This document shows, piece by piece, positions 197-11,734 of a DNA stretch of 13,481 nt. A program made the translations under genes and the position numbers. This DNA comes from Candidatus Jordarchaeales archaeon (GTDB taxonomy: Archaea; Asgardarchaeota; Jordiarchaeia; Jordiarchaeales; Freyrarchaeaceae), in the NCBI GenBank assembly GCA_038858525.1, contig JAWCFL010000045.1:1-13481 (forward strand), read 5' to 3'. How positions within the stretch are numbered: position 1 is the stretch's first letter; each line of letters starts with the position of its first letter. The notes under the pieces are model-generated. The model was not told the origin of the DNA and searched no databases. It saw only the letters and a list, made by a program, of their open reading frames with translations.

Positions 197-1063
197 CTAC
201 TCCTTAACCTCACGCGCAGTGGCGCTACCAGTTTTCTTTGAGCTTGAACTCCACACCTTTTCAGTACAATTCCAAAGTACTTTCCCCACCTCCGTCGGAT
301 AAACTTCTCCCTCCTTCTCCTCAGCCCATCCAAGCCTTATCACGTGTTCTACAGTCCTCTTTCCATACCTGCTTTCAAGCGCCTTTTTCGCAACCGACCC
401 AACGACGGCCAAATTACCTATTAAAGATGTTAACTCTTCCCACCTTCTAAACTTGATGGGCATAGCAGGTATACGTATCACCTTCCTGAAGTGCTCGTGA
501 ACGTAGAACACTGGAGCACCAGTCCCAGGCGAGTTAGCTGCGAGAACCGCTATCGCCGCCTCTGGTTTAAACCCCCCAGTCGCGTGAACATACACCCTGT
601 CCCCCTCCCTCCTGTGGCGTCTTATGAGGCCCGTTATCGCACTGAATAAGTTCGCCAGCCCGTCACAGAACGTGTCAGGCTTACCCAGCCCGGGAACTTT
701 GACAGCGCTCACAGCTCCCCTACCACCGTACTCCTTCACCAAAATCTCCTCCAAGCACGATTTTAACACTTCAGCGCACACCTCGCCTATCATGGTGTCC
801 GAGAAGAGCAGGTAAATCCACTGCTGCATTCCCGCCTCGTAACCATCTGCTACCAGGTCGAGGAACGTGTTGAGCTCAGCGCTCGCATCCTTAGGATTCG
901 TCAGGACGAAGCTCGCCAGCCTACCGACAAGCTCAGCTTTGTCCATCCTCCCGTCGGCGAGCATCCTCTCGAGCTCCGGCAGTGTCCCGCCGACAACCCC
1001 CGCCCTCTGCGCGTTCGTAATTATCGAGGCGCCAACCAAGACCACGTGGGCTAAACCTGCCAA
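197..1063 (-). CDS. crn1: CARF + winged-HTH protein, APE2256/Sso1393 family (Crn1-like cA4 ring nuclease or cOA-sensing regulator), 288 aa
   Basis: Family motifs HVVLVGAS..N, SAELN, LLFSDT..G..CA..L, GL.NL, VHATGGFKPE and VFYVHE, plus a C-terminal wHTH ending VYPTEVGKVL. Start moved from 1159 to TTG at 1063, which follows a GGGGTGG SD and lies about 36 nt downstream of a TATA box. The crn1 symbol is by family resemblance only. Confidence 0.8.
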   Translation of the reverse strand: MAGLAHVVLVGASIITNAQRAGVVGGTLPELERMLADGRMDKAELVGRLASFVLTNPKDASAELNTFLDLVADGYEAGMQQWIYLLFSDTMIGEVCAEVLKSCLEEILVKEYGGRGAVSAVKVPGLGKPDTFCDGLANLFSAITGLIRRHRREGDRVYVHATGGFKPEAAIAVLAANSPGTGAPVFYVHEHFRKVIRIPAMPIKFRRWEELTSLIGNLAVVGSVAKKALESRYGKRTVEHVIRLGWAEEKEGEVYPTEVGKVLWNCTEKVWSSSSKKTGSATAREVKE

Positions 1064-1098
1064 GAAACCACCCCAACTAAGACTAGCCAGGCTGACTC

Positions 1099-1112
1099 TT
1101 TTATATTTTGAC
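1099..1112 (-). promoter_or_regulatory. TATA box (ATATAAAA) with upstream BRE-like bases for the CARF gene
   Basis: Minus strand reads GTCAAAATATAAAAG, at a suitable distance from the SD and TTG start at 1063. Confidence 0.6.
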
Positions 1113-1340
1113 GCGTAGCACGCCTCAAAGCCGAAAATCTCGCCCTTCAGAAATAACACGTCCAGAGATCTCTAACCTCCGTGATCCTTAACAATAAACA
1201 AGCAATCTAGGGAACCGCTCAAGCTTGGCGCCGGCATTTGTGAGCTACCGCCGTGTCACGCAAAATTTCAAAGCTCGTTTAGAACAATTGACGAAATTTT
1301 TCAAGTAATTTGGTCCAATTTCCAAAAATTTTTGTTTTTA

Positions 1341-1407: not shown

Positions 1408-4400
1408 ATGGATTACTGGGATGGCAAAATAGCCGGCCTCCTCCACGACCCCCTTGACAAGGTTTTCAGAAAGGACCACTTTGTTTTCGCGGAAAATGTA
1501 GCATCTAAGATCCTGGGGTCTAGTGTTAATGTCGACGAGATTAAGGGCGAGATTAGAGCCCATCATTCAGGTGGATGCCTGCTATTCCCCGACAAAGCTG
1601 CCTCTGCATCTAATAGAACCCTCACCCCTCTCATTAACCCTCAGAAGGTGCTGCTCCAGAACCCTTTCTCCGGCGTCCTGTTCGATCTGAATCTCCCCTC
1701 CCCCTTCTCGTATGGTGACGCTGTTCCCCAGCTCACCGTGTCCTTACCCGCTGCTAATGGGAGGGAGGCTGCCCTCCGCGTGCTCAGCAAGCTTGTCGAA
1801 GTATACAAAGACATCTGGAGAGGCGTGAACGCCGCAGTCGTTAAGTCGCTCCTCCTACTTCCAGAGGACACGCGCATCCCATCATCACCGATGATCTCCC
1901 ACCTCCAAATGGTTAGCGCGCTGACCGACGCCACCAGGGTCGAGCCAGGCTTCTACATGGTTTACCTCGACATTGGCGGGGTCCAAGAGTTCATCTCGGT
2001 TTCGAGGAAGACCGTTGACTTCTGGGCTTCAAGCTACCTTTTATCCCTCGTCAGCCTCTCAGCACTCCTCCCACTAATGAGGAAGTTTGGCCCTCAGCAG
2101 ATTATCATCCCTTGGTTTCTCCGCTCCCCTCTCGTGGAGGCGTGCCTCTTCGGCCGCCAAGTGGACTTGAACGATGTTCTAAGCTCAACCATTCCGAACG
2201 CCGCGCTAATAGTAATCAAGGGAACGCCGGACGGCAACGTAGACGAGAAGAAGATAAGAGAGATGATGTACCATGGCATGGTCGAGTTCTGGAATAATGT
2301 ATGCGAAGTCCTCATCAAAAAGCTAAGGAGGGATTACGGCGTCGATGGGGGAGTGGAGGCGCAGGTTAGAAGGCATATGGAGTTCACGTCCATTTTCACC
2401 AAGATTAGGGTCGCCGTCCTGAACACTGCCCCCCTCCTAAGTGGAGAGAAACAGGGAGGATGGGCTGGCGAGGCTTATGAGAAGGCTCGCAATGAGGGGA
2501 AATTTAACCGGCTGGCTGAGCTCAAGAACGAGCTTGCAGGGCTCGATTTGGGTTACGAGAGCTATGCTCTCGAGGACTTCGAAGCTCTCGTGAAGACGCT
2601 CACAGTCGCTATGGGGTCACGGAAGCAGTATGAAGCTTTCAGCGCCGAGAAAGTTCCCAGGGGGAAGAGCAAGTGTAGCTTGTGCGGCATACGTGACCAC
2701 CTTGAGCTCGACGATAAAACCTGGGAGAAAATGGAGGAGAAGCTTGTCGTTGACCGCAATGAGCGGCTCTGCGCTGTTTGCCTGCTGAAACGTCTCCTCA
2801 GAGAAATTCTGCCGGAAGTTATAGGCGAGCTGGGCGGAAAAGTGAGTGTTGGGAAAGACAGGTTCAGGATACCCTCCGTGAGTGATGTTGCGACGGCATG
2901 GTTTAGAGCCTCGGTGCTCTCACTCATCCTCGCGTCAGCCGAGCTCAACCGCTTCGACGAGGCCTGCATGGCAGCCGAGGCTCTCCTAAAGTATTTAGAT
3001 GAGGCAGGTAAACTCGCCGGGAAGAAGCCGGAGGAGGATGAACGCGCCTTCCCGAACAAGCTAATCAAAGACCTTCACGATAAGGCTCTACACGTGCTCT
3101 CTAAGTTAGCTGAAGGTGCTGGGGGCGATTTCCGAGTTAAGATTGGCACTCTTTCGAGGCTCGCAGACGAGATGTGCTTTGCGGACTCCTCAGTTTTGCT
3201 GTTCGACGAGCTGACTGTAAGAGTAGCCCGCTCAAAAGCGGCGGATAGGGAAGCCCTGGAGAAGGTTAAAGGTAGTTATGAGGAAGCGTGCAGAGCACTC
3301 AAGGACCTCTGCGTGAGGAACAATAAACTAGTCGCGCTGGCTTCCGCGAAGCTTTTCGAGCACGTCTGCCTCCTCCTTAAGCTGAGTGGGGTAGGGGGGA
3401 ATAATGTTAGCTCGAAGATCGCGGAGGTCATACTGTCACCTCTCCGGGAGCCGTGCGAAATCGTCAAGAAGAAGGGGGACAAGAAGCTCTCTGTGCCGGT
3501 CAGCTTCCGCCCGCAGGAGAGGTTCGTCCTCTTGAGGATGGATGGCGACGACGTCGGAAAGTGGATTAGCGGCGAGCTCCTCCCACCGTGGCAGATTCTG
3601 ATCACACCCTCCGACGAAAGCCAGATAGTAAGTCACCGGAATATGCTCAAAGAGAAGACTGGCGACGACTTCAGCGACGTCTACTCCCGGAACAGGCCCA
3701 CGTCGCCTTCAACGCTATCCGTCCTCTCCATGGTCATCACTCTCAACATTCCAGTAGTTAAGTCCGTGGTGGAGGCGTTCGGCGGCTTCCTGATATATAC
3801 TGGAGGAGACGACGTGCTTGCCCTCCTCCCGCCAGAAGTCTGGCACTACGTCTACCTGCTTCTCAGGTTCCTCTACTCTAGGGAGATAATGGACAGCTTC
3901 AGGCTTGACGAAGACGGCCTCTACGTTTACGGCATGGGTGTGAGGGCAACCGCCTCCTTCTCCGTTGTCGTGGCGCACCACAAGGCTCACCTGAAACAGG
4001 TCATAAAATGCTCACACGAAATACTCGAGCGGTCAGCGAAGGAGCTGGCGAGGATGGAGGAGGGCGTAGAAGGGCGCGTCAAGGTAAAGGATGGGCTCTC
4101 CGTGGTGTTAATGTCGAGGTCGACCCCGATAACAGTCTGCGCGGTACCAAACGTGCTGATCAAAAGCGGAGGCAAGCTTCTCTCCATCAGGGAGCTCGAC
4201 AAGAAAGCCAGAAGGAAGGTTGAGGACAAAATCAGAAATCTGGAGGACGGGGCTGTTAAAGCCTGGATGGAGGAGTTCACCCACCTAATCAAGGTAATTT
4301 GCGGGCAGAGCGTCCACACATACCGAGACTTCTACAGTAACACTTCAGATCTCCACTTCGCCGGAGTATCGCCGGGCACAGGCGGAGTAATCGACTGGGA

Positions 4401-4827
4401 GACTAATAGCGTCTCGGGCAAAAATGTTGATGACATGGTTTACGTGCCATTATCAGATGCTGTTGCCCTATGTGACCTCACCGCGTCAGGCATTGTAAGC
4501 TCGAGGGCCTTCCACGACATTTACAGCTTCCACGAAGACACTTCGATCGGAGAGATGGGTTCCGAGAACTTGGACGCCGCGGTCACCCTTCTACGCGCCA
4601 GCCTAAAACACAAAGTCAAGAAAGAGAAAAAGGAAGAGGATGTGCCGTTGGCTGAAGTGCTCTTAAGGTCCGTGGAGAAGCTTCTGTCTGAAAGGTTCTC
4701 CGTGGGCGGAGGCAAAAGTGAGGGCGAGAGGAGGGGGACGGTGTTGAGCCTCCTCGAGGTTGTCCCGCTTTCGCTCATATTGTCCAGGTGCTTGGAAAAC
4801 GCTGTTTTGAGCTGTGGAGGGTGGTAG
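1408..4827 (+). CDS. cas10: Cas10/Cmr2, type III-B large subunit, 1139 aa
   Basis: N-terminal LLHDP (HD at 1444-1449); Palm1 DIGGVQEFISVSRKTVDFWASSYLLS; Zn finger CSLC...CAVC (2674-2781); Palm2 MDGDD (3538-3552) and YTGGDD (GGDD at 3802-3813). Confidence 0.97.
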   Translation: MDYWDGKIAGLLHDPLDKVFRKDHFVFAENVASKILGSSVNVDEIKGEIRAHHSGGCLLFPDKAASASNRTLTPLINPQKVLLQNPFSGVLFDLNLPSPFSYGDAVPQLTVSLPAANGREAALRVLSKLVEVYKDIWRGVNAAVVKSLLLLPEDTRIPSSPMISHLQMVSALTDATRVEPGFYMVYLDIGGVQEFISVSRKTVDFWASSYLLSLVSLSALLPLMRKFGPQQIIIPWFLRSPLVEACLFGRQVDLNDVLSSTIPNAALIVIKGTPDGNVDEKKIREMMYHGMVEFWNNVCEVLIKKLRRDYGVDGGVEAQVRRHMEFTSIFTKIRVAVLNTAPLLSGEKQGGWAGEAYEKARNEGKFNRLAELKNELAGLDLGYESYALEDFEALVKTLTVAMGSRKQYEAFSAEKVPRGKSKCSLCGIRDHLELDDKTWEKMEEKLVVDRNERLCAVCLLKRLLREILPEVIGELGGKVSVGKDRFRIPSVSDVATAWFRASVLSLILASAELNRFDEACMAAEALLKYLDEAGKLAGKKPEEDERAFPNKLIKDLHDKALHVLSKLAEGAGGDFRVKIGTLSRLADEMCFADSSVLLFDELTVRVARSKAADREALEKVKGSYEEACRALKDLCVRNNKLVALASAKLFEHVCLLLKLSGVGGNNVSSKIAEVILSPLREPCEIVKKKGDKKLSVPVSFRPQERFVLLRMDGDDVGKWISGELLPPWQILITPSDESQIVSHRNMLKEKTGDDFSDVYSRNRPTSPSTLSVLSMVITLNIPVVKSVVEAFGGFLIYTGGDDVLALLPPEVWHYVYLLLRFLYSREIMDSFRLDEDGLYVYGMGVRATASFSVVVAHHKAHLKQVIKCSHEILERSAKELARMEEGVEGRVKVKDGLSVVLMSRSTPITVCAVPNVLIKSGGKLLSIRELDKKARRKVEDKIRNLEDGAVKAWMEEFTHLIKVICGQSVHTYRDFYSNTSDLHFAGVSPGTGGVIDWETNSVSGKNVDDMVYVPLSDAVALCDLTASGIVSSRAFHDIYSFHEDTSIGEMGSENLDAAVTLLRASLKHKVKKEKKEEDVPLAEVLLRSVEKLLSERFSVGGGKSEGERRGTVLSLLEVVPLSLILSRCLENAVLSCGGW

Positions 4828-5956
4828 TCTGACGGCTAAGGGAACGCTCCTAGAAGTGGTTATGAAGCCGCGAGGGGAGCTGCTTTTCAGGACCCCAACC
4901 CCATTCTCCCTCGGAGGATACGCTGAGACGCAGCCACGCCCCTCGGAGTTCGGTGTAGCCGGGATGCTGCGCTCAGCCACAATGGACCTGGCGGAGGAGA
5001 GGGGCACCCCTCAAAACGTTCTGGAAAAGATCGTTGGGAGAGGAAAGGAGTATACCACTTATGACTTCTGCTGGAAGCTCGTTGGACCATACCTGATGAG
5101 GGGCAACGGCACTGTCTTCTACCCGATTCCATTCGACGTCTTCGTGGAGGGAGGAGAAGAGAGAAGGCGCCTACGCCTAGCTGACTGGCTAATCCCACAG
5201 CTCGAAGTAGTGGACGGTGGGCTCAAAGAGCTACTGGCTCCCTCAGCATTTAAGGGTGAAAGTGCGCGAAAGGAGTACTGGTTTGCCAGCTCGAAGCTCA
5301 TGGAAGAGTACCTTAATGGGGAAAATGTGTTTGATGAGAGTGACGTTGTTAGGGGCGAGAGCATCTATAGGCGGATGACGCATCCCCACGTGAAGCTGGA
5401 CAGGGAAATGAAGGCTGTCGAGATTGTGGAGGGGGAGGGAATGTACTTCGCCGTTGAGAAGCTCGCCCTCAGGGAGGGCTGGTCATTCATAGCTGGAGTG
5501 TGGCTTGACGGCTGCGAGCAACCGGAACTGGATAAGGTTAGAGACGCGTTCCTCGACCTAAACGGGAGGATTGCTAGGCTTGGGGGAGAAGGGGGACTAG
5601 TAAGCTTAGAAGTGAGGGAGTCTAAGTCTCTCCTAGAGGCAAAAGTGGAGGAGGACGCTGAAATCGAGGGAAGAGTTAGGCTCGTGCTGACCGCCTCAGC
5701 AGTCTTCGGGAACGGTGACAAGTCCTCCTTCCTCCCAGGACTGAGCGGCGTCGAGGGGTGTGCTTGCGCGCGCGCACTAGTTGGGGGTTGGGATTACGCA
5801 GCTAACAAGCCCAAGGAGCTGCGTTTGGGCGTAGCCCCAGGCTCCGTGTATTACCTTGAGAGAATTAAGCTGAGCGTAATCCTGGACAGGGTGCACGTTC
5901 ACCCTGATTACCGGAACGTGTTGGGTTCATGTTTAATAGCTAAGAGGTGGTTGTGA
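4814..5956 (+). CDS. cmr3: Cmr3 (Cas5-family RAMP), up to 380 aa; exact start uncertain
   Basis: Motifs LLFR...PF, PRPSEFGVAGMLRS, GPYL, PIPFD, H.KLDR..K, RLGGEGGL, GGWDYA.NKPK, VAPGSVYY. Position directly after cas10. Confidence 0.92.
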   Translation: MEGGSLTAKGTLLEVVMKPRGELLFRTPTPFSLGGYAETQPRPSEFGVAGMLRSATMDLAEERGTPQNVLEKIVGRGKEYTTYDFCWKLVGPYLMRGNGTVFYPIPFDVFVEGGEERRRLRLADWLIPQLEVVDGGLKELLAPSAFKGESARKEYWFASSKLMEEYLNGENVFDESDVVRGESIYRRMTHPHVKLDREMKAVEIVEGEGMYFAVEKLALREGWSFIAGVWLDGCEQPELDKVRDAFLDLNGRIARLGGEGGLVSLEVRESKSLLEAKVEEDAEIEGRVRLVLTASAVFGNGDKSSFLPGLSGVEGCACARALVGGWDYAANKPKELRLGVAPGSVYYLERIKLSVILDRVHVHPDYRNVLGSCLIAKRWL

Positions 5957-6859
5957 ATGAGTGAGGATGTGCCCTTCATTCCATCCATGTACGAGATCGT
6001 CGGAATAGCCTACTTCTGGTGTGAGACAGAGTTCTTCCCAGGCGGAGAGAGAGAAGCCGGCCCGGTGGATTTGACCGTTCAGAGGAACTTTAAGGGGATC
6101 CCCTACGTTAGGGGGAGCAGCATTAAGGGCGCGCTGAGATCCTTCTATGAACTCAACGGCAAGAGTAGCGAAGCCGAAATCCTTTTCGGCTCACCGGAAC
6201 ATGCTGGATGCCTAGTGCTGGAAAACGCCGAGATACTCGCCTTCCCCGTTAAGGCTGACAGGGAACTCTTCGTCTACGTCACTTCTCCAAGCCAGATTTC
6301 AGCTTACGTGAGAGACGCTAACAAGGTCGGCGTCAGCCTGGAAGAGGTGAGCGTCGGGGAAGGTGAAGCCTTGTCTGCGGCGCTTGAGGGGAAAATCGAA
6401 CTCATGGACGAAAAATACAGCCTCACATTGAAAAGGAACGATCACGTCAACAAGCTGGCTGGTAAAATCGCTGAGAAAGCGACTCCGAAGGTTAACGGAA
6501 AAACGGCTCCCGGTTACAGCTACCTTAAAGAGAAGCTCGAGAGGCTCATCGTGGTGGACGACGCTCTCTTCAGGGAGATAACTAACAGTGGCTTAGTCGT
6601 CGTTTTACGAATAGCACTCGACTACAAGACGAAGACCGTGACTGAAAAGGCGATGTTCTACCAGGAACTCATACCGGAAGGAACACTGCTCTACGCTCCA
6701 ATAATGAGGGCATTACGTTCCAGGTACAGCAAGGAGAGCAATGAAAGGGTTGAAGAGTTACTGAAGAAGCTGAATAAAGGTTTGCTCATTAACCTTGGAG
6801 GGGACGAAACCACCGGGAAGGGAGTGGTGCGAATAGTTGCGTGCGGGGTGGGCCAGTGA
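5957..6859 (+). CDS. cmr4: Cmr4 copy A (Cas7-family backbone RAMP), 300 aa
   Basis: VDLTVQR...IPYVRGSSIKGALRS, AEILAFPV, YVTSP, FYQELIPEGTLLY, NLGGDETTGKG. ATG abuts the cmr3 stop. Confidence 0.93.
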   Translation: MSEDVPFIPSMYEIVGIAYFWCETEFFPGGEREAGPVDLTVQRNFKGIPYVRGSSIKGALRSFYELNGKSSEAEILFGSPEHAGCLVLENAEILAFPVKADRELFVYVTSPSQISAYVRDANKVGVSLEEVSVGEGEALSAALEGKIELMDEKYSLTLKRNDHVNKLAGKIAEKATPKVNGKTAPGYSYLKEKLERLIVVDDALFREITNSGLVVVLRIALDYKTKTVTEKAMFYQELIPEGTLLYAPIMRALRSRYSKESNERVEELLKKLNKGLLINLGGDETTGKGVVRIVACGVGQ

Positions 6860-7254
6860 AAGAGGTTCAAGCAGCCCTAAAGTTCAGAGAGAAGCTGGGC
6901 ATCAAGGGCGACGAGGCTGCGGAGCTCTCAAGGAAAGCTAAGAGGATGTTCTCGATGACGCTGACGGAAGGCGCGATCTCAAGCTTCCTCTTCGCCTACA
7001 GCAAGGCGAAAAACGAGAACGTCAAAAAACTCCTCAGCAACTACGAGGAATACAAGAACCTCGAGAAGGAGGAGGGAGAGTGGGGGCTGATCGCCGCCTT
7101 CCTCATAAAGGAAGCCCTCTCAGACATGAAGCTTGACGGCGACCTCGTCAACCTGATGAACAAATTACACGAAAAGGACGTCAGAATGAAAGTTGAACGC
7201 GCCACCCTAAGATACCTCGAAGCCCTCGGAAAGGTCCTTGACGCATACTCGTGA
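6856..7254 (+). CDS. cmr5: Cmr5 copy A (Cas11 small subunit), 132 aa
   Basis: All-helical, with AKRMFSMTLTEGAISSFLFAYSK and RATLRYLEALGKVLDAY matching the Cmr5 pattern. Start set at GTG 6856 (GTGA overlap with the cmr4 stop, GGGGTG SD upstream). Confidence 0.85.
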   Translation: MKEVQAALKFREKLGIKGDEAAELSRKAKRMFSMTLTEGAISSFLFAYSKAKNENVKKLLSNYEEYKNLEKEEGEWGLIAAFLIKEALSDMKLDGDLVNLMNKLHEKDVRMKVERATLRYLEALGKVLDAYS

Positions 7255-7265
7255 GGTGAAGCCCT

Positions 7266-8663
7266 TTGAGCATGCACGTCGCATTCTTCGCGCTAACCAA
7301 CATACATCCGGGAGCCCCGGGAGGAGGGATAAGCGTCGCAGACCTCCCAGTGTACAGGGACAGGTTCTCGCTCGTGAAAATAAGGGGGGAAAGCCTGAAG
7401 GGCGCCCTCAGGTCGGCTGTCAGCCGCCGCCTCGGAGACCTAGAAGGCGCGCTTTTCGGCACGACAAGCCAGGCTGGCGCCTTCTCCATCCTAGACGCGG
7501 TCCTAGTCTTCGTCCCCGTCACGAGCGCCGAAAACGGTTTGATCTACCTTACCAGCCCCATGCTCCTCAGCTGCCTCGCAAGACACCTCGCAGTGGCGGG
7601 CGTGAAAGCCGCACAAAACATAGATTCGGTGGCATCAGCGCTCACGGGCCTCCCCCTAAACGAGTCCGCCTCAACGATTAACGACAACGAGGTAACTATC
7701 CTTGGGGAATTCACGTTCAAGAACAACCATGTTAACTGGTTAAATCCACTCAAGAACGCCCTTAAAATGGTTCAGCGGGCAGTCTCCGCCGACTTGCTGG
7801 ACATCATAGACAACCTTCTCGTCATAAACGACACAGCCGCCTCCATCCTCATCGAGAAGGCGCTCCCCATAAAACCGGGAGTTAAACTGAAAGGTCTCGA
7901 AGTCGAAGATGAGGTTTACCTGAAAAATGTGGAGCTCGGCCCATGGTTCGAGGAAGAAATACCGAAGTTCTCGGTTTTCTCCAGCGTCGTAATGTTCCCG
8001 CAAAGGAAAGTCGAAGCCGAGCTTGCGAGGGATGAAGCGAAGAGGTTCGTCCATGAAGCCCTAGTCGGACTGAGCGAAGCCCAACTCACCGTGAAGGAAA
8101 ACAAGGTGAAAGTGACGCTGAATCAGCAGTCCGTCAGCAGCCTCGTCAAGAAGTACCTGAGCGAAACCGCCCTGATAGTGGGAGGGCGAGAAACGCTCGC
8201 GAGGGGCTTACTCAAAGCGGCCGAGATGAGGTTCAACGGTGAATGGCCAGAGGTGAAGCGATCATGGAAGATGGCGGCGGGCGAAGAGCGGAAAACCAGC
8301 ATCTTCCTGGAACTGCTAAGGGAGACCGCCGGAGACCTGGAGAGGGCGGATGAGTTCGTCGGAAAGTTCTCCAGCCTCCCGGACAGGATCAGGAAGCTCC
8401 CACTGCTCTCCGTCTATCTCTTCTACACGAAGATCAAAGGTGATGTGGAAGGAAAAGGGTACAGAGAGGTGAGAGAAGTCATGAAAAGAATGAGAAACGA
8501 GGGGTTATTCAGCGAGGAGTGGATTATCGGCGACGGCGAGATAGCCAAAACCAAGACTGAAAGCACCAGCCAGCTGGTTCTAAGCTACAAGACTGTTTTA
8601 GAGGACATCACAAAGCTCAAGTATGTAATCAGAAGCTACGCCAAGAAAAAGGAGGTAGAGTAG
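7266..8663 (+). CDS. cmr4: Cmr4-Cmr5 fusion (Cmr4 copy B at about aa 1-325, Cmr5 copy B at about aa 336-465), 465 aa
   Basis: N part: TNIHPG...ADLPVYRD...IRGESLKGALRS, DAVLVFVPV, YLTSP, WFEEEIP, VGGRETLARG. C part: KFSSLPDRIRKLPLLSVYLFYTK and SYKTVLEDITKLKYVIRSY resemble Cmr5. SD GAGGTGA at 7253-7259 precedes TTG 7266. Confidence 0.85.
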   Translation: MSMHVAFFALTNIHPGAPGGGISVADLPVYRDRFSLVKIRGESLKGALRSAVSRRLGDLEGALFGTTSQAGAFSILDAVLVFVPVTSAENGLIYLTSPMLLSCLARHLAVAGVKAAQNIDSVASALTGLPLNESASTINDNEVTILGEFTFKNNHVNWLNPLKNALKMVQRAVSADLLDIIDNLLVINDTAASILIEKALPIKPGVKLKGLEVEDEVYLKNVELGPWFEEEIPKFSVFSSVVMFPQRKVEAELARDEAKRFVHEALVGLSEAQLTVKENKVKVTLNQQSVSSLVKKYLSETALIVGGRETLARGLLKAAEMRFNGEWPEVKRSWKMAAGEERKTSIFLELLRETAGDLERADEFVGKFSSLPDRIRKLPLLSVYLFYTKIKGDVEGKGYREVREVMKRMRNEGLFSEEWIIGDGEIAKTKTESTSQLVLSYKTVLEDITKLKYVIRSYAKKKEVE

Positions 8664-9524
8664 ATGGGCGAGGAAAAACGGGAAGGTCACTACAAGAACA
8701 TATATGAAGCATACCTCAGAAAAGCGACAGCACTCCTCCTAATGCTCGGAGAAAGCGGAAAAGGGGAGAAAAAAGGAAGATACGGGAAAGAAGACTACAA
8801 GAGGGAGCTCACCGATTGGATCTACAAAAAAGTAAACGAGAGAAAGGAGAACATATGCTCTAGATGCGAGAAACACTTGGAGGTCCTCAAAGCAGCGTAC
8901 GCCTCAGCTGGGAAGCACGTTGTCACTTGCGACATAACTTCAACTTCGAGGGTCATCGTCGACATATCGTCGCCCTTCGCGTGGCTGATAGACGAAGTTG
9001 GCCTCGCATGGGACTCACTGCTTGATGCTCCCATAATTTCCGGGATTAAGGGAGCTGTGAGGGCGGCCGCCGAATGGATGGACAACGCGCAGCTCGTCGA
9101 AGCGCTTTTCGGAAAAGCAAAGGACGAAAAGGAGGCACATCTTTCCCTTCTCTCGTTCACCGAAGCCTACCCCGTCAAGTCAAGAAACGAGCTGATCGTG
9201 AGAGACGTCATAACCCCAATGTACTCCCTAGAGAGGGGGACGGTGGAAGAGCACAGAGCTGAGCCGACACCAGTCAACTTCATCGCGATAAATAAAGGTG
9301 TAAAATTCAGGTTCCTAGTGATACTCAACTCGGACTACTACGAGAAGCTGACCAGCGACGTTAAAAGTTTACTAGGCGAAAACTACCCCCAAAACGTCGT
9401 GTCGAAGCTCGAAAAATATGTTAAGAAAGCTGTCGAGGAAATTGGGGTGGGGGGCAAAACATCCTCCGGGTACGGCTCATTCACCTTCACATCAATAAAA
9501 CTTGAAGGAGAAGTGAAAGCGTGA
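8664..9524 (+). CDS. cmr6: Cmr6 (Cas7-family RAMP), 286 aa
   Basis: EVGLAWD...P...IKGAVR, LFG, F.EAYP, DVITPMY, PTPV.F, GVGGKTSSGYG. SD GGAGGT upstream; ATG abuts the previous stop. Confidence 0.92.
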   Translation: MGEEKREGHYKNIYEAYLRKATALLLMLGESGKGEKKGRYGKEDYKRELTDWIYKKVNERKENICSRCEKHLEVLKAAYASAGKHVVTCDITSTSRVIVDISSPFAWLIDEVGLAWDSLLDAPIISGIKGAVRAAAEWMDNAQLVEALFGKAKDEKEAHLSLLSFTEAYPVKSRNELIVRDVITPMYSLERGTVEEHRAEPTPVNFIAINKGVKFRFLVILNSDYYEKLTSDVKSLLGENYPQNVVSKLEKYVKKAVEEIGVGGKTSSGYGSFTFTSIKLEGEVKA

Positions 9525-10873
9525 GGCACCTCGCAACGATAAAAATCAAAAGCCTAACCCCATCAGCAATAGGAGGATACAACCCTAACATCCACGACAA
9601 CATCTTCAGAGTAACATCCCTCAGGGGGCTAGCAGCATGGTGGCTAAGAGCTATAGTAAGCGGGGTGGCATACGACGAAGGAGACATAAACCACGATAAA
9701 AAAGCAACAGAAGCACAAAAAATAATATTTGGAGCAACTAACAAAAGCTCATTACTAGTCATTAGGACGAAGTTGGAAAATGTAAAAAATGTAAACACAA
9801 TAGGCACATCACTAACGGGGAGTGGCGAAAATCGCCTATCAATTAAACACATAAGACTCAGGCTTCTCCTAATGGGAGTACAGGATAAAATTAATACGCT
9901 TAAGGACATGCTGAAAAACTTCGATGCGACCATATGTGTTTACTCTTCCGCAAAGAAAACGAATTTGAAGGAAGTTCTTGGGCTGCATGCCATAATTATC
10001 TCCCTTCTTCTCGGAGGATTAGGGAAGGGTTCACGGAGGGCGATGGGGGCGGTCAAACTTTCATCGGTCGAACTTTCACAAAAAGTAAAGGAGTTCCTTC
10101 AAAAAGAGGGGTGCAGAGGACTGCTGCAAATATCCCAAAAAGTAGATGAAAACACGTTAAAGATGATTGTCGATGATGCTAGGAAGATCGCCGAAAAAAT
10201 GCTGAAAGAAGGGGTGCTGGAAGACATACAAACAGGAGAACTATCTTCATTTCCGAAGATACCATCGCTTAGCAAAAAGGCTGCCGAAATATATGTTAAA
10301 AAGCTAGAAGAGTTAAGAAACATGAGTTGCGAGAAGAGACTGGTCACCCTCAACGCCAAGATACTCGAAGAACTCTTCCTCAGAAGCCCAAACTTAAAAA
10401 GGCTTCCAAACATACTTCAGAACACGAAGCCATCTCAGAAAATTGTGAAACAAAGAGTTGTTAAAGTCTCGGAGGCCACCGCTTTAGGATCATACATTCT
10501 GGGTCTTCCAAGAGAAGCAAGAAACCCACCGGAAAAACATCGGTATAGAGTAGTCTTTAATACTACGACTACAAGTAGAAAAAAAGCTTCACAGGCTAAT
10601 GTGCCACAAGAACCCCGAAAACAGTATAGTGGCTTCGTAAAATTCAATGACAAAGATAAAGAATATGAGCATTACCGTAGGCCTTCTCCTGTTATTGTAT
10701 CGTTGCTGGATGAACAAACTGTTGTGATAACGCTTTTAAAGTCCTCCGACTGGCCAGAAGAACTACAATGGTTCACGACCAAAGAAAAAGAGGTAGAGGC
10801 GCGAGGCATAAACGACGCATACTCACTAGTCTCAAGCTACCTGTCAAGTAATTACCAGAAAATCTGGCCATGA
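9521..10873 (+). CDS. cmr1: Cmr1 (duplicated-RAMP subunit), 450 aa
   Basis: LTP..IGG, FRVTSLRGLAAWWLRA, IFGAT, LGGLGKGSRRAMG, LGLPR, RRPSPV. GTGA overlap with the cmr6 stop. Confidence 0.92.
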   Translation: MRHLATIKIKSLTPSAIGGYNPNIHDNIFRVTSLRGLAAWWLRAIVSGVAYDEGDINHDKKATEAQKIIFGATNKSSLLVIRTKLENVKNVNTIGTSLTGSGENRLSIKHIRLRLLLMGVQDKINTLKDMLKNFDATICVYSSAKKTNLKEVLGLHAIIISLLLGGLGKGSRRAMGAVKLSSVELSQKVKEFLQKEGCRGLLQISQKVDENTLKMIVDDARKIAEKMLKEGVLEDIQTGELSSFPKIPSLSKKAAEIYVKKLEELRNMSCEKRLVTLNAKILEELFLRSPNLKRLPNILQNTKPSQKIVKQRVVKVSEATALGSYILGLPREARNPPEKHRYRVVFNTTTTSRKKASQANVPQEPRKQYSGFVKFNDKDKEYEHYRRPSPVIVSLLDEQTVVITLLKSSDWPEELQWFTTKEKEVEARGINDAYSLVSSYLSSNYQKIWP

Positions 10874-10932
10874 TAGTATACTGAGAGTGGTGTTATTGGC
10901 TTCCTTCGCTTCCCTTAGCGATGCAAAAATGA

Positions 10933-10960
10933 GTTGCAAGAACCTATAAGGGCTTGAAAC
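10933..10960 (+). CRISPR. Solitary CRISPR-repeat-like unit GTTGCAAGAACCTATAAGGGCTTGAAAC (28 nt); not an array
   Basis: Begins GTTGCAA and ends TTGAAAC, like archaeal/bacterial type I/III repeats, with a central weak CCT/AGG stem. Lies 60 nt after the cmr1 stop. No second copy found by eye. Confidence 0.6.
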
Positions 10961-11008
10961 TTTCTGGAGCCTTTAGCCTCTCTGCATACTACTGTGCATC
11001 CCGCAATT

Positions 11009-11016
11009 TTTAAATA
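11009..11016 (+). promoter_or_regulatory. TATA box TTTAAATA for a leaderless RHH/protease transcript
   Basis: Box ends about 25 nt before ATG 11041. No SD precedes that ATG. Confidence 0.65.
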
Positions 11017-11040
11017 TTATTTATTTATTACGTATTTAGT

Positions 11041-11343
11041 ATGGGGACATTGACTATCTCGTTGAGCGATGAGGTTGAAGAGAAGCTTAGGCGTCTTGTG
11101 GGAGAGATGGGTTCAGGTAAGGGTTTAATGTCGAAGGTCATAGAGGACGCGTTAAAAGCGTATTTTTCCATGCTGGAGCGGAGGGAGAAGCGCTTCAAGG
11201 CTTACATGGGGGAGGAGCTGGTCGCCGAGGCGGGCGACCTCGAAGAGCTTGCCTCGGAGCTCAGAAAGAAAGGCTTAGACCCGAGAAGTGTAAGGGTCAT
11301 CTCATCGGAGCCGTTGAAGCCAGTCGTGAGGATGGGCTGGTAA
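11041..11343 (+). CDS. Ribbon-helix-helix (CopG-like) DNA-binding domain fused to a DUF5678-like domain, 100 aa
   Basis: N-terminal TLTISLSDEVEEKLRRL...MSKVIEDALKAYF fits the RHH pattern. C-terminal FKAYMGEELVAEAGDLEELASEL.K.G resembles DUF5678. Confidence 0.72.
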   Translation: MGTLTISLSDEVEEKLRRLVGEMGSGKGLMSKVIEDALKAYFSMLERREKRFKAYMGEELVAEAGDLEELASELRKKGLDPRSVRVISSEPLKPVVRMGW

Positions 11344-11344
11344 C

Positions 11345-11734
11345 ATGTTCATGGGAAAGACGCCGGTTCTCGAAGCTGCCCTGAGCAACCCTCTCCTCTC
11401 GGTAAGGTTTCCCGAGTCAGGTGGCTTACTCGCAGTCCTGGACACGGGCTACGAGGGTTTCGCCATAATTCCGCCTGAACTTTTTATGAAGCTGAGGCTA
11501 AACGAGCTTAGCCAGACGAAGAGGGTCCTCCTCACCCCGACGGGTAAGCATGTCGATTCGACTGGAACATACGGGAGAATCATCATCCCCGAACTGAAAA
11601 CCTTCAGAGACGGGTTCATAGAGACGACGGACGGAGTGGACGAGGTTATCCTCGGAACAGATTTCCTGAGCGGATTCAAGCTCACAATAAACTACTGCAC
11701 GATGAACCTCGAAATCACCCCATGCCGACTATGA
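11345..11734 (+). CDS. Clan AA (retropepsin-like) aspartic protease, AF_0612-like, 129 aa
   Basis: AVLDTGYEG catalytic motif (DTG at 11441-11449), flap region LLTPTG, and C-terminal VILGTDFL. Starts 1 nt after the RHH gene stop. Confidence 0.85.
   Translation: MFMGKTPVLEAALSNPLLSVRFPESGGLLAVLDTGYEGFAIIPPELFMKLRLNELSQTKRVLLTPTGKHVDSTGTYGRIIIPELKTFRDGFIETTDGVDEVILGTDFLSGFKLTINYCTMNLEITPCRL

Follow-up and report, generated by a model that had tools for sequence, protein, structure and literature searches.

Repeats that stand alone beside type III CRISPR-Cas loci are already known, and the situation is common (PMC10120712). Shmakov et al. (2023) found mini-arrays near 10–14% of type III systems and judged these unconserved, target-less elements to be degraded repeats; single repeat units (SRUs) were described in the same study (PMC10120712). 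In S. solfataricus, the single repeat-like motif of ncRNA60 is cut by Cas6-3 and accounts for ~1.5% of the reads of the CSM complex, the RNA itself having no known function, and Cas6 specificity ranges from strict to promiscuous (PMC4041471). Racrs, the solitary repeat units of viruses (Camara-Wilpert et al. 2023), are carried by viruses and plasmids, frequently with a promoter immediately upstream, and are not bound to cas genes (PMC10651486).

The window analysed here, the whole stretch of 13,481 nt, carries a lone CRISPR repeat behind cmr1 at the end of a type III-B operon (Table 1), and no cas6, cas1 or array was found on this 13.5-kb contig. Our analysis points to the probable import of an array with repeats of a type I-B family, of which the lone repeat would be the leaderless terminal remnant, with no selected role.

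Table 1. Features of the window around the lone repeat
Feature	Position	Strand	Remarks
Type III-B operon (cmr2, cmr3, cmr4, cmr5, second cmr4-like, cmr6, cmr1)	1408–10873	+	Genes abut or overlap
cmr1, last gene of the operon	9521–10873	+	TIGR01894 above cut-off
cmr1 3' flank	10874–10928	+	Conserved in a congener without a repeat behind the flank; not a leader
5-bp hairpin	10906–10921	+	Part of the cmr1 flank; chance-level stability
Solitary CRISPR repeat	10933–10960	+	Host 30-nt array repeat minus 2 nt after position 10
Short stem-loop directly 5' of the expected Cas6 cut	10943–10952	+	Letters same as in the array repeat
Predicted 8-nt 5' tag, CTTGAAAC	10953–10960	+	Inferred Cas6 product; 8-nt rule from PMC5965381
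Unique segment, 44 nt; last spacer or trailer flank	10961–11004	+	Ends at an AT-rich block common to relatives
20/22 antisense match to a HepT-like gene (C8 5288–5309)	10969–10990	+	Not above chance
AT-rich, TATA-containing block; probable RHH-protease promoter	11005–11040	+	Conserved in G001 and G004
RHH-like gene (11041–11343) and clan AA aspartic protease (11345–11734)	11041–11734	+	Separate unit; behind other genes in relatives

The 28-nt unit aligned with a 30-nt repeat that makes up two further array blocks of the genome, on contigs C33 (eight copies) and C34 (four copies), at 28 of 30 positions with a single 2-nt gap after repeat position 10 (E = 1e-4, whole-genome search). Its local alignment score was 25, as against a maximum of 15 among 100 shuffled windows, and Rfam gave sub-threshold CRISPR-DR matches only, placed exactly on the unit. 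The preliminary description, which had recognized a 28-nt CRISPR repeat from the letters, is borne out by this match to the host arrays. The unit is intergenic, on the strand of cmr1 and 59 nt behind its stop codon. Its last 18 nt are exactly those of the array repeat, with cut site and handle intact, and its last 8 nt form the tag expected earlier. The 2-nt deletion leaves stem, tag and the first 10 nt untouched, and it falls in the linker whose change is tolerated by P. furiosus Cas6 (PMC5965381); the predicted register of the stem-loop was moved by one, and its folding was not significant. The sense orientation, assumed at the outset, is fixed by arrays at two loci (L034 and L077), where the identical 30-mer heads arrays behind cas1-cas2 and an AT-rich leader.

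The repeat occurred once in the window, with no second or half repeat 25–50 nt to either side (best 14/30, background mode 13/30), and it is thus solitary, as had been reported. An active CRISPR array was rejected, as there is neither a regularly spaced second repeat nor an AT-rich leader with a promoter. A scan for direct repeats around the unit found no duplication bracketing it, and an off-target Cas1-Cas2 integration scar was rejected for this lack of a target-site duplication.

Upstream of the lone repeat, the AT content over 60 nt was 58%, compared with 70–78% in true leaders of the same repeat; no match to the L034 and L077 leaders was found there, and a pattern scan revealed no TATA-like box or other promoter of its own. 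Scans for sigma-70 promoters and intrinsic terminators, both ill-suited to archaea, gave nothing. No run of four or more T occurred between cmr1 and the repeat, the first T5 run downstream of cmr1 falling in the AT-rich block before the RHH gene; judged from the sequence, the repeat is probably read through from the cmr operon. In one metatranscriptome, contigs on the RHH and protease genes began near 11050 and none lay on 10798–11049, although such contigs cannot show small RNAs or absence and were given no weight. A hairpin had been pointed out ahead of the repeat; its position stood, but it proved unremarkable, with 102 perfect 5-bp hairpins in the window and folding no better than in shuffles (z = −0.5). 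It is kept, with one G-U pair, in a congener without the repeat and belongs to the cmr1 flank rather than to the repeat. The unique sequence before the next promoter, given earlier as about 45 nt, measured 44 nt; spacers of the same repeat family are 34–38 nt long (mode 36).

Other features of the neighbourhood were also recorded. The second Cmr4-like gene (7266–8663) encodes 465 aa, with ~145 extra C-terminal residues past the Cmr4 match, and the layout was equal in the related operons compared. Divergent from cmr2 lies a CRISPR-associated gene of the APE2256 family (197–1159, minus strand), which matched a ring nuclease model weakly, far below the cut-off. A TnpB-like ORF with Cas12f1-like TNB and IS605 OrfB domains occupies the contig end (12617–13465, minus strand) and is absent from the matching place in the G001 and G002 loci. 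In G001, the RHH-protease pair (L005:1890–3391) adjoins csa3 and a type I-A operon; the pair therefore borders different cas modules in two congeners.

Comparison with relatives placed the unit at a junction. The congener G002 (95% complete) retains cmr1 and the 55 nt behind it, hairpin included, with no repeat of either family there; the sequence beyond, read by eye, is apparently a decayed nucleotidyltransferase/HEPN-like sequence. Two near copies of the G002 sequence (L037 and L039) were counted with it as one lineage; their contigs are labelled Nitrososphaerota and Thermosphaera, are nearly identical to G002 after cmr1 and are probably misbinned. Three remoter cmr1 lineages (L040; L041/L050; L043/L052) showed no array and no match to the host repeat, a comparison that lone repeats of their own families would escape, and the related-locus search found no cmr1 relatives in the genome-contig collection. 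Conservation behind cmr1 orthologues, for which the preliminary description had proposed a check, is not seen in G002, which keeps the operon without the repeat; the distant lineages, in which a lone repeat of another family would be missed, weigh less.

Similarity to G001 and G004 begins at ~11005, in the RHH promoter block. Because the cmr1 flank is kept in G002 and the RHH block in G001 and G004, the repeat and the 44-nt segment are bounded on both sides by blocks that occur in relatives, though in different contexts. The segment had no convincing homology to the equivalent position in relatives (p = 0.06 and 0.73), the former value being too weak for us to accept homology to DNA upstream of the G001 RHH promoter. 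The G002 sequence past the hairpin resembled that promoter (p = 0.008) but not its counterparts in G004 and the window (p = 0.14 and 0.47), in AT-rich sequence; this is only a hint that ~75 nt may have been inserted. The weak likeness of window positions 10968–10985 to L040:5369–5400 (16 of 18 nt), which lies about as far behind a remote cmr1 orthologue, was rejected as chance (uncorrected p = 0.02–0.04, 28 comparisons, no repeat ahead).

A genome-wide search revealed arrays on three further contigs. The genes at L034, where the exact 30-mer follows a leader, are of type I-B, with Cas8b, Cas7/Csh2 and Cas1b above cut-off. No close I-B Cas6, Cas7, Cas1 or matching leader was found in the present genome, which is 92.7% complete and in 63 pieces, and the cognate I-B locus may be unassembled. 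An exact-pattern search of 200 other genomes of the phylum did not find the 30-nt repeat, and a search of four family members at two mismatches gave nothing beyond a chance match; two family members bear long arrays of a different repeat.

All three blocks of the 30-nt repeat in this genome, those on C33 and C34 and the window copy, are leaderless. The C33 copies stand behind four repeats of another family, the C34 block begins within the end of an ORF, and deviant repeat copies sit at block ends, the indel of the last C34 repeat falling where the window copy lacks its 2 nt. The C33 locus (L079:1026–1800, minus strand) reads as a hybrid array, in which a leader is followed by four relative-shared repeats and then eight 30-nt repeats, the first two of them mutated. 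L035, 98% identical to C34, carries repeats at a place that is empty in this genome, which shows the blocks to be labile. In this conspecific-like locus, at least three 30-nt repeats (L035:1–170, versus L080:3809) stand directly before the nuclease/HerA/Cas6 cluster of C34, with spacers that differ from those in this genome; no contig was found that bears the C34 nuclease-like gene and reaches an array. Further CRISPR-Cas loci of the genome include an apparent second III-B set with two adjacent Cas1-like ORFs (L082, contig C50), a RAMP cluster beside a third repeat family (L081, contig C49) and a second type I-A-like operon (C19:24788–31435).

Metagenome assemblies frequently break or collapse at arrays, and the sequencing runs containing the window were hot-spring metagenomes. 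It is nonetheless extremely improbable that the unit is a collapsed array or some other assembly artefact, or else a chance resemblance. Chance is opposed by the alignment score given above, and collapse of an array would leave an exact 30-mer. The lone repeat recurred without change in other assemblies of the species, at 11 loci, in a gap of 167–168 nt throughout; the only gap difference among these loci was one G inserted after 10990, which segregates in the species, and 10994 G>A was seen in one run. Single contigs from three DNA runs spanned the repeat with no joint or loose end at the unit, one of these runs representing a strain with a diverged cmr1 and an unchanged repeat; several of the samples stem from few studies and are not fully independent. 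The one longer gap, 438 nt in L024, was considered as a longer array in another strain and rejected, being an N-gap scaffold artefact with duplicated cmr1 sequence. Since the DNA flanking the unchanged repeat is also ~99.5% identical in the other assemblies, its constancy does not show selection.

The segment behind the repeat was then examined as a potential guide. No 11-nt seed match was found on five cas contigs, the cmr promoter included, and the sole 10-nt match there falls inside a gene; contig C19, covered by the genome-wide 11-nt scan only, gave no match. The best self match in the genome was the HepT-like gene listed in Table 1, covering guide positions 9–30. Its target site is identical in four other assemblies, and both variants of the segment (the insertion after 10990 and 10994 G>A) lie just past guide position 30. 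As good a genome match was obtained by 40–64 of 1000 shuffles under two lenient scorings and by 31–42% under strict scoring, and scores at least as good came from 4 real spacers in a set of 39, three of the four belonging to unrelated organisms. Only 5 of 14 positions flanking the match agree. Derivation of the segment from the HepT gene was tried and rejected, none of 53 homologues having the matching peptide and none of 40 relatives the 22-mer at three mismatches. The HepT/MntA-like pair lies at L046:942–1774 (C8:4941–5773); HepT keeps its RxxxxH motif. In the MntA-like protein, Gly replaces the first Asp of DxD, a residue present in nearly all homologues; this protein occurs on 22 contigs, so the antitoxin may be catalytically impaired.

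These observations permit the reading that the segment is a guide against the mRNA of the host HepT toxin: Cmr would pair through positions 9–30 and slice the transcript with Cas10 left inactive, tying toxin silencing to the cmr operon. Activation of Cas10 requires pairing next to the tag, and slicing by Cas7 needs no such activation (PMC11127173). The antisense placement within the ORF, the invariant target site, the position of the segment variants and the altered neighbouring MntA-like protein would fit such a guide, which we nonetheless hold very unlikely; with shuffles and real spacers scoring as well as they do, and with flanks unexplained by any HepT homologue, the match is treated as being at chance level, with a small residual probability. 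Even less probable is the full scheme, an RNA-level type III counterpart of CreTA addiction, in which the cmr mRNA would bear its own guide, Cas6 would free a crRNA-like RNA from its 3' end and Cmr would slice the HepT mRNA with no triggering of Cas10. A toxin guide of this kind, if true, would mean that a type III system operates a toxin-antitoxin tether through RNA, of which we found no description in the literature examined. A target outside the host is the alternative: the unit could be a one-unit array still active in defence, with the 36 nt that follow the repeat serving as a spacer against an unsampled virus and being expressed by read-through from cmr. The segment is long enough to hold a 36-nt spacer, it lacks convincing homologues at the same position in relatives, and viruses of the host group are thinly sampled (PMC13700489). 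Searches of IMG/VR gave no exact 18–21 nt match, a viral scan gave one 19-nt match that fails to extend, and BLAST against phage and plasmid records gave nothing significant (best E = 0.2). The 28-nt variant repeat was not found in viral contigs, one 18-nt match lacking the 5' half. There is also no closing repeat. A decayed repeat usually marks the trailer end of an array, and the DNA beyond it is not a spacer. A working unit is quite unlikely. The preliminary description had seen no convincing target inside the window, and the genome and the viral, phage and plasmid searches extend that result.

Processing of the repeat without any target was weighed as well. Two genes that might provide the postulated Cas6 in trans do lie elsewhere in the genome (C33:11454–12386 and C34:7340–8197). 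The unit might be a kept processing site at which Cas6 trims the cmr mRNA, either freeing a crRNA-like RNA for Cmr as a decoy or feedback signal or setting the 3' end of the mRNA. The sense orientation close behind the stop codon, the lack of T runs before the repeat, the intact tag and stem, and the precedent of ncRNA60 (PMC4041471) favour this idea. We consider it unlikely, as the site is missing behind the cmr1 of the congener and was not seen in the three remoter lineages, and as the precedent itself has no known function (PMC4041471). In addition, both host Cas6 proteins are 55–79% identical to orthologues in relatives that lack the 30-nt repeat, and tblastn gave no match between them and the I-B Cas6 that accompanies it. 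The regulatory or decoy role suggested earlier finds no support in these comparisons or in the target searches. Incidental cutting, as for ncRNA60, may occur, the tag and stem being intact and read-through being plausible; that a host Cas6 cuts the lone repeat is a real possibility, if the less probable outcome.

We therefore return to the remnant of an imported array, held with reasonable confidence and already named in the preliminary description as a fallback; it fits the evidence best. It draws on the identity of the repeat, its single copy, the missing second repeat, the absence of leader-like sequence ahead of it and its restriction to the species. The leaderless state of all three blocks, the lability seen at L035 and the terminal C34 repeat with an indel at the same site point the same way, as do the exact repeat with leaders in complete I-B loci, the lack here of close I-B Cas6, Cas7, Cas1 or leader, the negative result in 200 genomes of the phylum, the repeat-free G002 and the absence of a target above chance. 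Against it we count that the unit is unchanged in 11 loci and three runs, that the deletion spares tag and stem and that the I-B locus may be unassembled. The type I-B repeat family would have entered the species from other hot-spring archaea, a direction of transfer suggested by distribution only, and the imported array would then have broken up, leaving scattered blocks beside cas loci. The present unit would be the decayed end repeat, followed by a last spacer or by plain flank, left at the junction of the cmr1 3' flank and the RHH promoter. Such a remnant would be unable to gain spacers because it has no leader, and it is probably co-transcribed from the cmr operon. If it is cut, the cleavage site would lie beyond the cmr1 stop codon, and the product would be a target-less crRNA-like by-product with no selected function.

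As a relic, the unit is of little import, since it only adds to the solitary repeats seen next to type III loci. It would also document the break-up of an imported repeat family into leaderless fragments within a single Asgard species. With the predicted 5' end (10953) and both candidate Cas6 enzymes defined, it lends itself to a clean test of the cutting and loading of solitary repeats at type III loci.

Comparison with the described systems places the unit closest to the SRUs. It is nearly identical to a host array repeat, has no second repeat and lies in intergenic DNA flanking a cas operon, and it shares with SRUs and mini-arrays a position unconserved in close relatives and the lack of a target (PMC10120712). 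The type III cases of that study lie close to an array, whereas here the 13.5-kb contig holds none and the repeat is of a type I-B family for which the host's relatives gave no match. Like CreA of CreTA and the mini-arrays that repress cas promoters (PMC10120712), the unit combines a repeat with a spacer-like segment in a cas neighbourhood; unlike them, it has no degraded second repeat, promoter of its own, cas-intergenic seed match or conservation. A regulatory crRNA-like RNA of this kind was rejected on the absence of a degraded distal repeat and of a seed match of at least 10 bp (with PAM) in a cas or toxin promoter, together with the unconserved position. In that a single repeat might titrate Cas6 and backbone subunits, the unit resembles the Racrs (PMC10651486). 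The present unit differs from them in being chromosomal, as shown by synteny with the congener, in lying behind a cas operon without a promoter and in not being found in viral contigs; an RNA anti-CRISPR was rejected on its chromosomal place and the lack of an upstream promoter in the pattern scan. The leaderless locus F of S. solfataricus is similar in having no leader, hence no acquisition, and a sequence frozen across strains, and it differs in holding 88 spacers as against one repeat here (PMC4390879). A parallel in RNA terms is ncRNA60 (Sokolowski et al. 2014, PMC4041471). It too consists of one repeat-like motif in the vicinity of cas genes, and cutting it would yield an RNA with a crRNA-type 5' handle that can enter a type III complex. 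That RNA is expressed, cut by Cas6-3 and enriched in CSM, whereas the lone repeat is known from sequence alone; the stem, not kept in ncRNA60, is kept in the lone repeat, which probably falls within the 3' flank of the cmr mRNA.
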